Position numbers and translations under genes: made by a program. From the IMG/VR virus record IMGVR_UViG_2880389630_000005: a DNA stretch of 64,000 nucleotides; one strand, written 5' to 3'. Numbering within the stretch: position 1 is the stretch's first letter; every line of letters starts with the position of its first letter. Below the pieces are notes generated by a model that was not told where the DNA came from, made no database searches, and was given only the letters and a program-made list of their open reading frames with translations. The DNA is from a virus (Duplodnaviria > Heunggongvirae > Uroviricota > Caudoviricetes). Positions 28,022 to 63,729 of this stretch are shown here, in pieces.

Positions 28022-28083
28022 GTTGGTTTTTCTCCAAGGATTTACCGACAACCGAAGCCCTGACTGTTACCGCAGTTGGGGCT

Positions 28084-28308
28084 TCAACTTTTCACTTCTT
28101 TAAAGTGCCTACCTTCTACAGTTGCTCTGAGATAAAAATTCTTATCTTTACCGTTTAGTGCTTCCCAAGCATCAACAATGCACTTATTACAGATGTGGAC
28201 TTCTCGATAACCAATAGCTTTCCTGTCAATATTAGTGAACATAACAGCTTCTTTATCTGTCAATGTGGATGCATGACAGAAGTCGCAATCTATATAAGAT
28301 ACCTTCAT
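28084..28308 (-). CDS. Cys-rich small protein (putative zinc ribbon) in arc-ant operon
   Basis: 74 aa with CDFC...CNKC; sits between arc and ant, overlapping the arc stop. Confidence 0.4.
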   Translation of the reverse strand: MKVSYIDCDFCHASTLTDKEAVMFTNIDRKAIGYREVHICNKCIVDAWEALNGKDKNFYLRATVEGRHFKEVKS

Positions 28309-57152: not shown

Positions 57153-57776
57153 ATGTCATCAATCCGCTTAACTACGAGAATGAAAGAGGAAATCGCTCGT
57201 AACGCTTTAATTAAGTCTGGGGTTTTCACTGAACTTAAAGAAGTAACAAAGTTAAAGAACCAGCTTGCACTTGACGCCAGAGTTATTGCGTTTGGCGGTA
57301 AAAAGAAAACTGAGGAAGTGGAACAGTTATCATCCAAGTTAGTAGCTATAAGTGAAGAACTTGAAAAAATGGGATGTTCATTTTACTCACGCGATGTTCG
57401 TTCTACATCAATTTATCTGACTGTATCTGGCAGAAGGGTTGGATGGCTTTCATATGGGAAAGACGGCAACGGTGAAGATATATTGCTCCCTACTCCGACC
57501 AAAGATAAATGCATGTTTGACGCAGAACACGAAATAACAAAAAGGTTTGATGAAATCTGCGCATTGCAACAAAACCTTGAAGCCTTGAAAAAGGATATCG
57601 AATCAAATGTATGGGCTGCTTTGAACTCAGTCACAACAGTTAAGCGACTTATTGAAGTTTGGCCTGAAAGCAAAGAATTGCTACCAAAAGAAGAAGATAA
57701 AGCAAGTACAGCACTTCCTGCTTTACGGGTAGAAGATTTGAATAAGATGATTGGACTTCCTTCCGAGGCCGCATAG
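57153..57776 (+). CDS. hypothetical protein, first ORF of N-cIII accessory block
   Basis: About 207 aa from ATG with GAGGAA RBS; AT-rich; no motif recognised. Confidence 0.4.
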   Translation: MSSIRLTTRMKEEIARNALIKSGVFTELKEVTKLKNQLALDARVIAFGGKKKTEEVEQLSSKLVAISEELEKMGCSFYSRDVRSTSIYLTVSGRRVGWLSYGKDGNGEDILLPTPTKDKCMFDAEHEITKRFDEICALQQNLEALKKDIESNVWAALNSVTTVKRLIEVWPESKELLPKEEDKASTALPALRVEDLNKMIGLPSEAA

Positions 57777-58541: not shown

Positions 58542-58731
58542 TACGAATAAGCACTGTGTATTCATTCCAACGAGTGAATACACGGAGCAATGTCGCTCGT
58601 AACTAAACAGGAGCCGACTTGTTCTGATTATTGGAAATCTTCTTTGCCCTCCAGTGTGGGGGCCTTTTTATATGCATACCAATAACGCTTCACTCGAGGC
58701 GTTTTCGTTATGTATAAATAAGGAGCACACC

Positions 58732-58896
58732 ATGCAATATGCCATTGCAGGGTGGCCTGTTGCTGGCTGCCCTTCCGAATCTTTACTTGAACGAATTACC
58801 CGTAAATTACGTGACGGATGGAAACGCCTTATCGACATACTTAATCAGCCAGGAGTCCCAAAAAATGGATCAAACACTTATGGCTATCCAGACTAA
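58732..58896 (+). CDS. cIII: CIII (FtsH inhibitor)
   Basis: 54 aa from internal Met; MQYAIAGWPVAGCPSESLLERITRKLRDGWKRLIDILNQPGVPKNGSNTYGYPD matches lambda CIII. Confidence 0.85.
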   Translation: MQYAIAGWPVAGCPSESLLERITRKLRDGWKRLIDILNQPGVPKNGSNTYGYPD

Positions 58897-60753: not shown

Positions 60754-60927
60754 GGAATTTACCATGAGAGGACTTGCATACAATCCCGGCATTCTTCCAG
60801 CAGAAATGATTATTCGCCAACGCGTAAAGCCAATGCCATAGAGAGAGGAATTGCTTAAGAGAAATAGTTTCGGTTCTGTTAATGACAACAAATATCTGAA
60901 TGCGATGTTGCGTAAAGGAGTCATCCA

Positions 60928-61305
60928 ATGAGCAAGATTGATTATCAAAAGCTTCGTGAAATCGCTGAAAAAACAAAAATTGCTGGTGAAGCACCTGTAA
61001 TGCCTTTCGATCAGCGAATTAATGCGCTTAACGATTTTATGAAGCACTTTTCGCCAGATATCGCGCTGGCATTGTTGGATGAAGTTAAACGCCTAGAAGA
61101 CACAAATATTGATGCCATGTGCCGAATTGCAGAACTGGAGAGCAATCGCGCGACGCTGGCGGCGGAGCATGGTATTCAGATTGCAATAAATGAACTGCTT
61201 GCTCTGGCCCCGCGTCTGGATAAACGAGCGGTGGATGCACTCTCTGTGGCTGTGGAGCACCTGTGTAAACTGATTAAGAAGGAGGCAGTCAGTGAGCAAA
61301 ATTAA
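60928..61305 (+). CDS. Ead/Ea22-like protein
   Basis: 125 aa; shares N-terminal pattern MSKI.YQ.LRE.A... and ALALLDE-type segment with next ORF. Confidence 0.45.
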   Translation: MSKIDYQKLREIAEKTKIAGEAPVMPFDQRINALNDFMKHFSPDIALALLDEVKRLEDTNIDAMCRIAELESNRATLAAEHGIQIAINELLALAPRLDKRAVDALSVAVEHLCKLIKKEAVSEQN

Positions 61306-61888
61306 TTGCCAGGCACTGCGTGAGGCGGCACAGAACGCGAAAGATTTAGGTGGGATTAAGAATTACAAGCGAGGCGAGCAAGCTGTTGCCGAATTTGAGT
61401 CCTTGATAACGCCACACATTGTGCTGGGGCTTCTGGATGAACGGGAAAGAAACCAGCAATACATAAAACGCCGTGACCAGGAGAACGAGGAAATTGCGCT
61501 AACGGTAGGGAAGCTGCGTGTTGAGCTGGAAGCCGCAGAGAAGCGCAACGCAAAATTACAAAGCGAGAATGCATACATCCGCAACAGGTACAAAGAACTG
61601 GACCTATTAATCGGGAAAAACATTCTGGTCATGCAGGCTGCCATTATCGAATGGCAATCGACTGGCGACGCTAAAAGCGGACTGGCATGGATTTATAACA
61701 CACTGTTTGGCCCAGGCGAATTGCCGGACGAATCTGAGAAAGATGCTCAGGCCTACTTTAATCGCAAATATGCACCGATTGACGAAAAGCTCATGGAGCT
61801 TCACAAGTGGTTTTGGGAACAAAGTGAAGCCGAGCGCGCCGCTGGAATTCGCACCAAAGGAGACGCAGGAGAGCAAAACGATGAATAA
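61292..61888 (+). CDS. Ead/Ea22-like protein (paralog of previous)
   Basis: 198 aa; N-terminus parallels previous ORF (MSKINCQALREAAQ...HIVLGLLDE). Confidence 0.45.
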   Translation: MSKINCQALREAAQNAKDLGGIKNYKRGEQAVAEFESLITPHIVLGLLDERERNQQYIKRRDQENEEIALTVGKLRVELEAAEKRNAKLQSENAYIRNRYKELDLLIGKNILVMQAAIIEWQSTGDAKSGLAWIYNTLFGPGELPDESEKDAQAYFNRKYAPIDEKLMELHKWFWEQSEAERAAGIRTKGDAGEQNDE

Positions 61889-62072
61889 CCGTAAAGCAAA
61901 GATGCTTATTTCCCGTGTATACAGACGTTGCTATCCCAGCCAGTGGTTGAGAGTTAGCAATCGCCGTATGGTGTTGTACTTATATTCTGGAATTGCCAGA
62001 GAGGGAATCAAAGATAAGCGCAGCGCGGCGCAAAACCGCTGGAAAAACCCCTTGCGTATCAAAGGAGAGTGA
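61881..62072 (+). CDS. small basic hypothetical protein
   Basis: 63 aa from internal ATG overlapping the upstream stop. Confidence 0.3.
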   Translation: MNNRKAKMLISRVYRRCYPSQWLRVSNRRMVLYLYSGIAREGIKDKRSAAQNRWKNPLRIKGE

Positions 62073-62210
62073 GGATGTTCAATAATTTGCCTGGTACTGG
62101 TTTTTTCGTTGTTTTCGGTGTCATTTGCGCCGTTATTGGTTGGGCAGTTATTGAGTCCATTCTTTGGCTGCTTTCTTTCATTCACATAACTATTGGTTGA
62201 GAACTGACCC

Positions 62211-63008
62211 ATGACCACTTTCACCGACAAAGAACTGATTAAAGAAATCAAAGAGCGCATAGGCAGCCTGGACGTTCGAGACAATATTGAGCGACGGTCG
62301 TATGAAATTGCTCTGGCATCGCTGGAACGCGAACTGATTCGCCACGAGCATGCCAAATGGTCTGACTCCACATTTGGCTGCGTTGGCCCCATTGGTCCAC
62401 TGAAACACCTCTCAAAAGAGGCTCTGGAAGCCGCAGCCGAACCAGACGATCTCAGCGAGTGGGCTGATATGCATTTCCTGTTGTGGGATGCACAGCGCCG
62501 TGCTGGCATCAGCGATGCTGAAATTACCGCTGCTATGGAAGATAAATTGAAGATCAACATGGAGCGCCAGTGGCCTGAACCAAAAGATGGTGAGCCTCGC
62601 TTGCACATTAAAGAACCCGGCAACTCTCCGGTAATTCCGGATGGTTTATCCACGGTATGCGCTGAGGCTTATCAGGTTGTAGGAGTTATGGCAGATGCGC
62701 TTGGTGTATTCGGTGATGCAGCAGTACAGAAAGTTCTGGATAACCTGTCACAGCAAAAACTTGTTCACAGAGATGTGCTGCCGTTCTCGCTTCCGGTGAC
62801 TCCGGATGGTTGGATAAGCTGTAGTGAGCGAATGCCGGATACCAAAACAGCCGTTCTTGTTGCCAGGGAGTTTGACAGGAAAGGTGACTGGCGAATGAAA
62901 TGGGCGACTTACATCCCGGGTCATCCTGACGCTAATGATGGGTGGATAATTCCTGGTGCGTCGTGGAAACCGTCACACTGGATGCCGCTACCAGAGCCTC
63001 CACTTTGA
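62211..63008 (+). CDS. DUF550/DUF551-type phage protein
   Basis: 265 aa; C-terminal WISCSERMP...WMPLPEPP resembles DUF551 of lambdoid early-left regions. Confidence 0.45.
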   Translation: MTTFTDKELIKEIKERIGSLDVRDNIERRSYEIALASLERELIRHEHAKWSDSTFGCVGPIGPLKHLSKEALEAAAEPDDLSEWADMHFLLWDAQRRAGISDAEITAAMEDKLKINMERQWPEPKDGEPRLHIKEPGNSPVIPDGLSTVCAEAYQVVGVMADALGVFGDAAVQKVLDNLSQQKLVHRDVLPFSLPVTPDGWISCSERMPDTKTAVLVAREFDRKGDWRMKWATYIPGHPDANDGWIIPGASWKPSHWMPLPEPPL

Positions 63009-63284: not shown

Positions 63285-63384
63285 TTTATTTATTCATATA
63301 TGAAAACAATGTAACCAATATTCGATTTGAAGAACTGAAAGAACACCAAGCCGCCTGATGGCGGTTTTTTATTGGAGACAAGAA

Positions 63385-63729
63385 ATGTCAGATTTGGCTA
63401 TGAAGGTTTTGAAATGGCAATCGACTGGCGATGTTGGCATCAGTAGCGCAACTCTTGCCTCAATCGCATGTGGACTGAAAAAGAATATCTATGGTCATCA
63501 CTTCGGCGCTCCCCATGACGCAGCCGATTTCAGACGATGCGTTGCACTTGTTGAGCAGATTCCAGAAATCAGAGATTCATTCAACAAGGTTGCAAAGCGC
63601 GTTCCGGCATTCAAAGGAATCCTCAACGAATGGGATTCCCTCGTTGCTCTGTTGAAGTCTGAAATGAAGACGTACGGGAACAAAGCACCAGAGACTTACA
63701 GAAGAATCAGCGAGCTACGAAAGGACTAA
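63385..63729 (+). CDS. hypothetical protein
   Basis: About 114 aa from internal ATG; the ORF-track start lies inside the upstream terminator hairpin. Confidence 0.35.
   Translation: MSDLAMKVLKWQSTGDVGISSATLASIACGLKKNIYGHHFGAPHDAADFRRCVALVEQIPEIRDSFNKVAKRVPAFKGILNEWDSLVALLKSEMKTYGNKAPETYRRISELRKD

Follow-up and report, generated by a model that had tools for sequence, protein, structure and literature searches.

ORF1 and ORF2, two adjacent reading frames in the 64,000-nucleotide stretch of viral DNA analysed here (the window), very probably represent a pair of Ea22-family genes that was brought together in the pL operon of a P22-like prophage by cassette exchange and not by local duplication, and whose products would be pro-lysogenic oligomers. 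Module exchange is preferred to local duplication because the close relatives of the modules of both proteins sit on other partners. The pair would owe its origin to homologous recombination that swapped cassettes at short stretches of conserved sequence, the candidate joints being the boundary at the gene start, the start of the coil at LLDE(RERNQQY) and the 3' tails that bear a Shine-Dalgarno (SD) sequence. Identical RefSeq genomes already carry annotations for both genes, and mosaic, multi-copy ea22 is already published, Ea22 having been described as three-part, tetrameric, mosaic and multi-copy (PMC10834534).

ORF1 (60928..61305, + strand) opens with ATG and encodes a short Ead/Ea22-family protein of 125 aa, and ORF2 (61292..61888, + strand) opens with GTG and encodes a canonical Ea22-type protein of 198 aa. 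The ORF listing gives exactly the coordinates under which the preliminary description had reported two consecutive ORFs of different length. The genes are co-oriented, ORF2 being read in the +1 frame relative to ORF1, and they overlap by 14 nt. In the sequence, an AAGGAG SD stands at 60915..60920 (+), 7 nt 5' of the ORF1 ATG. The SD of ORF2, AGGAGG (61280..61285, +), lies within the 3' end of ORF1, in its last codons, 6 nt 5' of the GTG, which is itself 14 nt ahead of the ORF1 stop. Since the SD is contained in ORF1 codons and the GTG precedes the ORF1 stop, this layout implies that the two genes would be translationally coupled. A signal scan found neither a promoter-like site nor a + strand terminator-like site within or between ORF1 and ORF2. 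A programmed frameshift fusing the two frames was also considered and rejected, there being nothing in its favour; the SD, the GTG and the 14-nt overlap recur behind unrelated upstream genes.

On the 5' side of the pair, a DUF2737 gene (60764..60931, +) is interrupted by a TAG at 60839-60841 and is a pseudogene in the PGAP annotation of an identical record. The tail of this gene, ending LRKGVIQ, bears the ORF1 SD and overlaps the ORF1 ATG by 4 nt (ATGA); a tail of this RKG..Q type with an overlapping start was also seen at 23 distinct 3' ends of Ea22 type. On the 3' side stands a conserved ORF of 63 aa annotated as a hypothetical protein (61881..62072, +), whose ATG overlaps the end of ORF2 by 8 nt. 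Its own tail ends RIKGE and provides the SD-bearing boundary to the following small ORF. In loci L002 and L005, too, Ea22 genes are followed by an ORF of this size.

The start of ORF2 in RefSeq/PGAP is an ATT at window position 61355, 21 codons downstream of the GTG, which gives a protein of 177 aa (cf. P0150). The evidence favours the GTG at 61292, as in the gene model of the preliminary description, which appears to be the better one. AGGAGG is found 6 nt upstream of this codon, the Pfam match to ORF2 opens at residue 2, the alignment of the two paralogues opens at residue 1, and the sequence upstream of the ATT is kept in the close relatives of ORF2. Moreover, lambda ea22, 933W L0069 and P27 gp11 all use GTG, followed by SEIN.QALRE. 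When 74 distinct Ea22-type starts were aligned with the Tyr codon as anchor, GTG was the majority codon at the expected start (51/74), a frequency that is biased by the choice of the viral-locus sample through similarity to the ORF1 coil. The corrected start would restore 21 residues of the conserved family N-terminus that the RefSeq ATT drops. As Ea22 proteins affect prophage induction, including that of Stx phages, correct gene models are useful to those who test them. Residue 6 of ORF2 is a Cys, the result of a TAC to TGC change relative to the Tyr of its closest relatives; this position is not critical, because lambda Ea22 carries a Ser there.

The surrounding genes identify the locus as early-left (pL) accessory DNA of a P22-like lambdoid prophage. 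The 1-kb segment with ORF1 and ORF2 recurs at 100% identity in 19 complete E. coli genomes, ST131 included, in which RefSeq labels both genes 'ead/Ea22-like family protein'. The prophage is inserted between dacD and sbcB, its integrase end adjoining sbcB, and P22-type virion genes, the immI region and dacD lie upstream of the early-left region. In one such identical record, the genes run from a cI-like repressor through N, an Nmad5-family gene, cIII, kil, a Sak4-like ATPase, SSB and Abc2 anti-RecBCD to the DUF2737 pseudogene, ORF1 and ORF2. Beyond these come the 63-aa ORF, the gene for a dATP/dGTP pyrophosphohydrolase-DUF551 protein, Eag, the gene for an xis-like HTH protein and the integrase. 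The early-left accessory location proposed at first sight is thus borne out by the run from N, cIII, kil, the Sak4-like gene, SSB and Abc2 to the pair and on to xis and int. The Ea22 genes of lambda and of Stx phages have the same pL location, between the recombination functions and xis/int. Rfam models place a sar RNA at 28022-28089 and a lambda cIII thermoregulator at 58719-58777, upstream of the pair, and parts of the ORF1/ORF2 region are 96% identical to HK620.

Both proteins belong to the Ead_Ea22 family PF13935, membership being judged by whether the HMM score of the whole protein reaches the gathering cut-off of 27 bits. ORF1 scores 31.6 bits over residues 2-98 and ORF2 66.4 bits over residues 2-93, and both match PHROGs 250 and 368. 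In a pairwise BLASTP comparison, residues 1-55 of ORF1 align with residues 1-53 of ORF2 with 21/55 identities (38%, E=3e-7), and no similarity was detected by this comparison beyond residue ~55. The aligned block runs from MSKI(D/N)(Y/C)Q.LRE.A to (A/G)LLDE, which upholds the shared N-terminal pattern noted earlier; the similarity does not end after the first few residues. Comparison of the sub-family profiles gave a match of 98.7% probability (E=4.6e-16, 61 columns), likewise confined to the N-terminal module (N-module) and stopping a few residues past LLDE. At the DNA level, the shared 5' regions are ~50% identical, with no long identical tract. These alignments confirm a similarity that is real and beyond chance, and that is limited to the first ~55 residues.

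The modules of the two proteins are found elsewhere in other combinations. The N-module of ORF1 is ~94% identical in P1-like phages, in D6 and in Salmonella P22-like phages, where it is joined to other C-termini; these matches stop at residue 55, and a search of phage records returned none that covers at least 80% of ORF1. The full-length relatives of ORF1 have 60-99% identity. In a large protein collection, its C-terminal module (C-module) of ~70 residues recurs at more than 90% identity behind four or more different N-modules, P0008 and P0043 being proteins in which an N-module other than that of ORF1 is placed on the ORF1-type C-module. The reciprocal arrangement, i.e. the ORF1 N-module and early coil on unrelated C-terminal domains, occurs in P0016, P0018, P0029 and P0085. 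To the reference phage Ea22 proteins, ORF1 is related through the N-module alone. ORF1 can thus be regarded as a short variant with a helical C-module of its own that is nearly invariant wherever it is found.

For ORF2, residues 1-85 are 62% identical to residues 1-78 of lambda Ea22, and residues 31-189 are 78% identical to the coil and whole C-terminal domain of the 933W Ea22 protein L0069 (AAD25414.1). Stx2c phages encode residues 31-191 at 92% identity behind a different N-terminus. A protein 98% identical to ORF2 (P0121, 258 contigs) differs only in the first few residues, and in P0177 residues 1-51 of ORF1 are fused at LLDE to the remainder of ORF2. ORF2 is thus a mosaic: its short N-module is lambda-like, and its coil and C-terminal domain correspond to those of 933W Ea22. 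A common ancestry with ORF1 can be traced for the N-module only.

L0069 and ORF2 are alike in their GTG start, their SxIN.QALRE N-terminus and their early-left site between the recombination genes and xis/int. However, L0069 has 257 aa, with an insert of ~40 extra residues in the N-module and an extra coil segment of 28 residues, both of which ORF2 lacks. Like ORF2, lambda Ea22 (P03756; C-terminal domain PDB 8DSX) starts with GTG, is built of three parts and has a short N-module that lacks the Stx-type insert and leads into LLDERERNQQYIKRRDQENE. This stretch belongs to the conserved start of the Ea22 coil, LLDERERNQQYIKRRDQENE(D/E)IALTVGKLRVELE, which ORF2 carries. ORF1 does not have it and reads VKRLEDTNIDAMCRIAELE after LLDE.

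AF2 modelling with family alignments gave only helices for both proteins, with a medium pLDDT of 72 for ORF2 (helices at 6-18, 31-38, 41-124, 127-139 and 149-183) and a low pLDDT of 62 for ORF1 (helices at 6-15, 27-38, 43-92 and 99-124). ORF1 would be made of the N-module (1-55), a long helix (~43-92) and the conserved helical C-module (~56-125), and ORF2 of a short N-module (1-53), a long coiled-coil helix (~41-124) and a helical C-terminal domain of the 933W L0069 type (~100-198). The N-region, coiled coil and C-terminal domain layout of Ea22 is thus predicted for both. In lambda, the C-terminal domain forms a dimer of mixed alpha/beta structure (PMC10834534), whereas the C-terminal parts of ORF1 and ORF2 are predicted to be all-helical; neither part aligns with the lambda domain, and the lambda fold (8DSX, beta1-beta2-alpha1-beta3-beta4-alpha2) was not recovered, no strands being present in either AF2 model. 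A sequence search of the PDB gave no match at E<=1 for ORF2 and a chance-level match for ORF1. Foldseek comparison of the ORF2 model with the PDB returned nothing at E<=0.001 and no hit below E=1.8, which is not surprising for a long-helix model of medium confidence.

Two minor observations were made in these regions. A sub-threshold NCBIfam match of the long helix of ORF1 to a chorismate-mutase-like model (21 bits, cut-off 73) was treated as helix noise and this reading was discarded. The string WQSTGD is common to residues 121-126 of ORF2 and to the ORF at 63358-63729; the match spans 10 residues and gives no evidence of a domain, and a shared domain was likewise discarded.

In lambda and in the Stx phages Phi24B, 933W and P27, Ea22 favours lysogeny and host survival (PMC7093339, PMC10834534), the 933W gene being among the Stx-phage ea22 genes tested as pro-lysogenic (PMC7093339). 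The lambda and P27 proteins, the two tested, are tetramers in solution (PMC10834534). By analogy, ORF1 and ORF2 would be early-expressed coiled-coil oligomers whose C-terminal domains would be presented to a host or phage partner, and such oligomers would tilt the lysis-lysogeny decision towards lysogeny and host survival. This pro-lysogenic role is carried over from homologues that share part of the sequence, and the analogy is weaker for ORF1, for which it extends to the N-module only.

We considered that ORF1 might be a non-functional by-product, i.e. a chimeric remnant of recombination between Ea22 cassettes that persists only through recent exchange and because its 3' end bears the ribosome-binding site of ORF2. 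The comparison of its C-module with that of L015 points in this direction, with 3 synonymous and 10 non-synonymous codon differences, as does the distribution of variable sites over the three codon positions (17/12/17). The low confidence of the AF2 model, the neighbouring DUF2737 gene that is already a pseudogene, and one ORF1-type copy labelled as a pseudogene by PGAP are also consistent with it. Nevertheless, the frame is intact in 17/17 loci, in 6 DNA versions and under at least four N-modules, ORF1 has its own SD and ATG, and the copy labelled as a pseudogene is an intact ORF of 152 aa. In addition, relative to its closest different relative, the ORF1 C-module shows 4 synonymous and 4 non-synonymous differences over ~52 and ~152 sites, respectively, i.e. 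a dN/dS of ~0.3. On this balance, such a by-product seems an unlikely reading of ORF1.

The start of ORF2 lies in a conserved gene-boundary sequence (61270..61330, +) that comprises the end of the upstream gene, the SD, the GTG and the codons for SKIN(Y/C)QALREAA. This 61-nt junction block is nearly identical between the window and six elements of ~90 kb (L003-L008). In the alignment of the 74 distinct starts, the register in which the upstream gene ends is constant (74/74), its end lying 14 nt after the first base of the codon at the start position, and the upstream tails vary, e.g. EA(A/T/V)SE(Q/R)(N/D) or VKDGENDN. Column conservation is 0.43 in the body of the upstream gene, 0.67 at the SD, 0.80-0.84 from the start to ~+45 nt, and 0.56-0.63 beyond. 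The MSKI.YQ.LRE start thus lies on a boundary sequence that is kept in front of Ea22-type genes even though the genes upstream of it are many and unrelated.

The 3' tails follow a comparable rule. The 23 distinct tails ending IRIKGE all read ATC AAA GGA GAG TGA N ATG. The K-G-E codons, AAA GGA GAG in every one of them, thus double as the AAGGAG ribosome-binding site of the gene that follows, and these following genes are diverse. A further 23 tails of the RKG..Q type carry an AAAGGA(G/A) ribosome-binding site and an overlapping GTGA or ATGA start. The C-terminal K/RGE motif, the significance of which was termed unknown in PMC7093339, can accordingly be read as the translation of the SD of the next gene. 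The C-terminus reads GIRIKRGE in L0069, GIRTKGDAGEQNDE in ORF2 and KKEAVSEQN in ORF1; the lack of K/RGE in the latter two weighs little, because their 3' ends still carry the SD for the next gene. SD-bearing boundaries between translationally coupled genes would explain the conserved tails K/RGE, RKGGNQ and EAVSEQN as well as the heads MSKI.YQ.LRE.

Short conserved boundary sequences have been proposed as recombination joints of lambdoid phages in work on HK620 (Clark et al. 2001, as cited in PMC3029335). As presented in PMC3029335, the linkers of Clark et al. 2001 and Susskind & Botstein 1978 are short gene-boundary sequences that flank unrelated cassettes, and the boundaries seen here are alike in this respect. 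Their conservation pattern suggests that the boundary sequences of the ORF1/ORF2 region probably serve as such joints.

Copy number was assessed in 79 IMG/VR loci that were retrieved with the ORF1 coil and C-module and scanned with an HMM of the N-module. One Ea22-type gene is present in 25 loci, two in 51 and three in 3, i.e. at least two in 54/79, frequencies that are biased by the retrieval through similarity to the ORF1 coil. The spacing between Ea22-type genes is -14 nt (n=7), -4 nt (n=28) or ~0.04-1.3 kb (n=22). The finding of two or more copies per locus agrees with the two Ea22 variants reported in eight Stx-phage/EHEC genomes and the three reported in one (PMC10834534). Like the present pair, the Stx/EHEC ea22 variants V1-V3 occur more than once per genome and combine a common N-terminus with unrelated C-terminal domains. 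That survey covered Stx phages and EHEC prophages, whereas the pair described here resides in a P22-like prophage of non-Stx E. coli (ST131 and others), and the short ORF1-type variant is absent from lambda and from V1-V3 as described in PMC10834534.

Short ORF1-type proteins, such as P0043 (152 aa, 77 contigs) and P0002 (126 aa), are encoded on the ~90-kb elements and in other prophages. They resemble ORF1 in the C-module of ~70 residues (more than 90% identical), in the KKEAVSEQN end and in the 14-nt overlap with a downstream Ea22-type gene that starts with GTG. Unlike ORF1, most of them have a longer N-module with an insert of ~27 residues (GEWVAF), and their partners have other N-inserts and C-terminal domains than ORF2, of the lambda type in L004. 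A second Ea22-type gene with the same 14-nt overlap follows the ORF1-type C-module in 16/17 loci. For P0043 (24 contigs of up to ~170 kb), the next gene is an Ead_Ea22 gene at a 14-nt overlap in 6/6 loci shown; these partners have 164, 216 or 250 aa, one of them with a lambda-type C-terminal domain.

As the 14-nt pairing is kept in 16/17 loci while the variable parts of the partner change, an ORF1-type protein and its downstream Ea22 may form a conserved, translationally coupled two-protein unit, i.e. a two-component, cassette-swappable regulator of the lysis-lysogeny decision. In such a unit, the short paralogue would co-assemble with its partner via the shared N-module or the coiled coil, and would tune the activity or the oligomeric state of this partner. 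The pairing may mark nothing else than sites of cassette recombination, because the same boundary also follows unrelated upstream genes, and we regard a dedicated two-protein unit as quite improbable.

The exchange of cassettes also has to be weighed against a scenario in which one ea22 gene was recently duplicated in tandem at this locus and the copies then diverged, with loss or gain of the C-terminal part; the preliminary description had proposed duplication and divergence. The genes are adjacent and co-oriented and have an N-terminal domain in common, as expected from such an event. However, the shared part has only 38% protein and ~50% DNA identity, with none after LLDE, each module has relatives of 92-99% identity that are joined to other modules elsewhere, and ORF1-type genes pair with at least eight distinct downstream Ea22 partners. 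The common N-module thus stands from the earlier proposal, while a local event, given this divergence and the closer relatives found elsewhere, is very unlikely, and exchange of cassettes is retained as the origin of the pair.

Finally, the PADLOC model PDLC02890 ('DpdH') matches residues 80-189 of ORF2 strongly (E=2.3e-36, model positions 13-122 of 127), which would assign the C-terminal half of ORF2 to a 7-deazaguanine (Dpd) defence system, in the role of DpdH. This identity is hardly credible and was rejected on the domain size, DpdH and DpdI being described as BrxC-like factors (bioRxiv 10.1101/2025.09.15.676423) whereas ORF2 has only 198 aa, on the absence of annotated dpd genes from the surrounding ~63 kb, where a dpd cluster with dpdA-K would be expected, and on the 78% identity of the same region to 933W Ea22. 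An exhaustive search grouped the relatives of the ORF2 C-terminal domain into 366 representative clusters, nearly all of them small proteins that carry the domain at their C-terminus, almost all of 100-320 aa and none BrxC-sized. The 'DpdH' label of the match is probably an artefact of model construction, and users of PDLC02890 should be cautious, as this model picks up the C-terminal domains of phage Ea22 proteins.

In Ea22 proteins the C-terminal 'K/RGE' motif, whose significance has been called unknown (PMC7093339), is a Shine-Dalgarno sequence combined with a stop/start junction for diverse downstream genes. At the 3' ends of the Ea22-type genes in the compared loci L003-L088, the DNA of the motif read AAA-GGA-GAG-TGA-N-ATG in every distinct case (23/23). 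The window carries a 3' end of this type at 62058-62078, and the tails '...RKGGNQ*' and '...EAVSEQN*' follow the same Shine-Dalgarno/junction logic. A 63-aa ORF (window 61881-62072), which overlaps the end of the canonical Ea22-type gene ORF2 by 8 nt, terminates in ...RIKGE*. This ORF gave no family match; ORFs of the same size come after Ea22-type genes in L002, a locus of E. coli OkiPb01680, and in L005, one of the compared loci.

At the 5' side, the DUF2737 gene (window 60764-60931) lies directly upstream of the short Ead/Ea22-family gene ORF1. A stop codon in frame (TAG, 60839-60841) breaks this DUF2737 gene, which the identical RefSeq record labels a pseudogene, but the tail of the gene is intact and still provides the ribosome-binding site of ORF1. 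For ORF2, the RefSeq/PGAP start is the ATT at window 61355, giving a product of 177 aa (WP_369769930.1) that lacks 21 residues of the conserved family N-terminus; the family-typical start is the GTG at window 61292, with AGGAGG 6 nt upstream. In L002, the ORF1-type gene is entered by PGAP at 2767-3090 as a pseudogene that is incomplete ('missing C-terminus'). Its frame is nevertheless intact over 2767-3225 and encodes 152 aa, and an Ea22-type gene follows with the usual overlap of 14 nt.

The PADLOC model PDLC02890 ('DpdH') matched residues 80-189 of ORF2 (window 61529-61858) with an E-value of 2e-36. The matched part is the phage Ea22 coil and C-terminal domain, and the size, the context and the distribution of this domain argue that the 'DpdH' label is wrong. 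Defence-system calls made in prophages with this model may therefore be false.

Further downstream, a 265-aa ORF (window 62211-63008) contains a dATP/dGTP pyrophosphohydrolase domain (PF04447, E = 1e-41) and DUF551 (E = 4e-21), and its N-terminal segment resembles that of L0065 of the Stx phage 933W. PGAP divides this single uninterrupted reading frame into a partial pseudogene and a shorter CDS, though no stop codon interrupts it. The sequence W-Q-S-T-G-D is common to ORF2 (residues 121-126, window 61652-61669) and a 123-aa ORF at 63358-63729 (window 63415-63432). As the match spans only 10 residues, 6 of them identical, this likeness is probably due to chance.

Elsewhere in the prophage, Rfam matches to the sar RNA, the P22 immI antisense RNA (window 28022-28089, 97 bits), and to the lambda cIII thermoregulator element (window 58719-58777, 88 bits) confirm that the immI region is of the P22 type and that the cIII leader resembles that of lambda. 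According to the annotation of the identical record, the early-left operon has a putative nucleotide-modification gene of the Nmad5 family immediately behind N, at about 57153-57776 of the window (position computed by offset).
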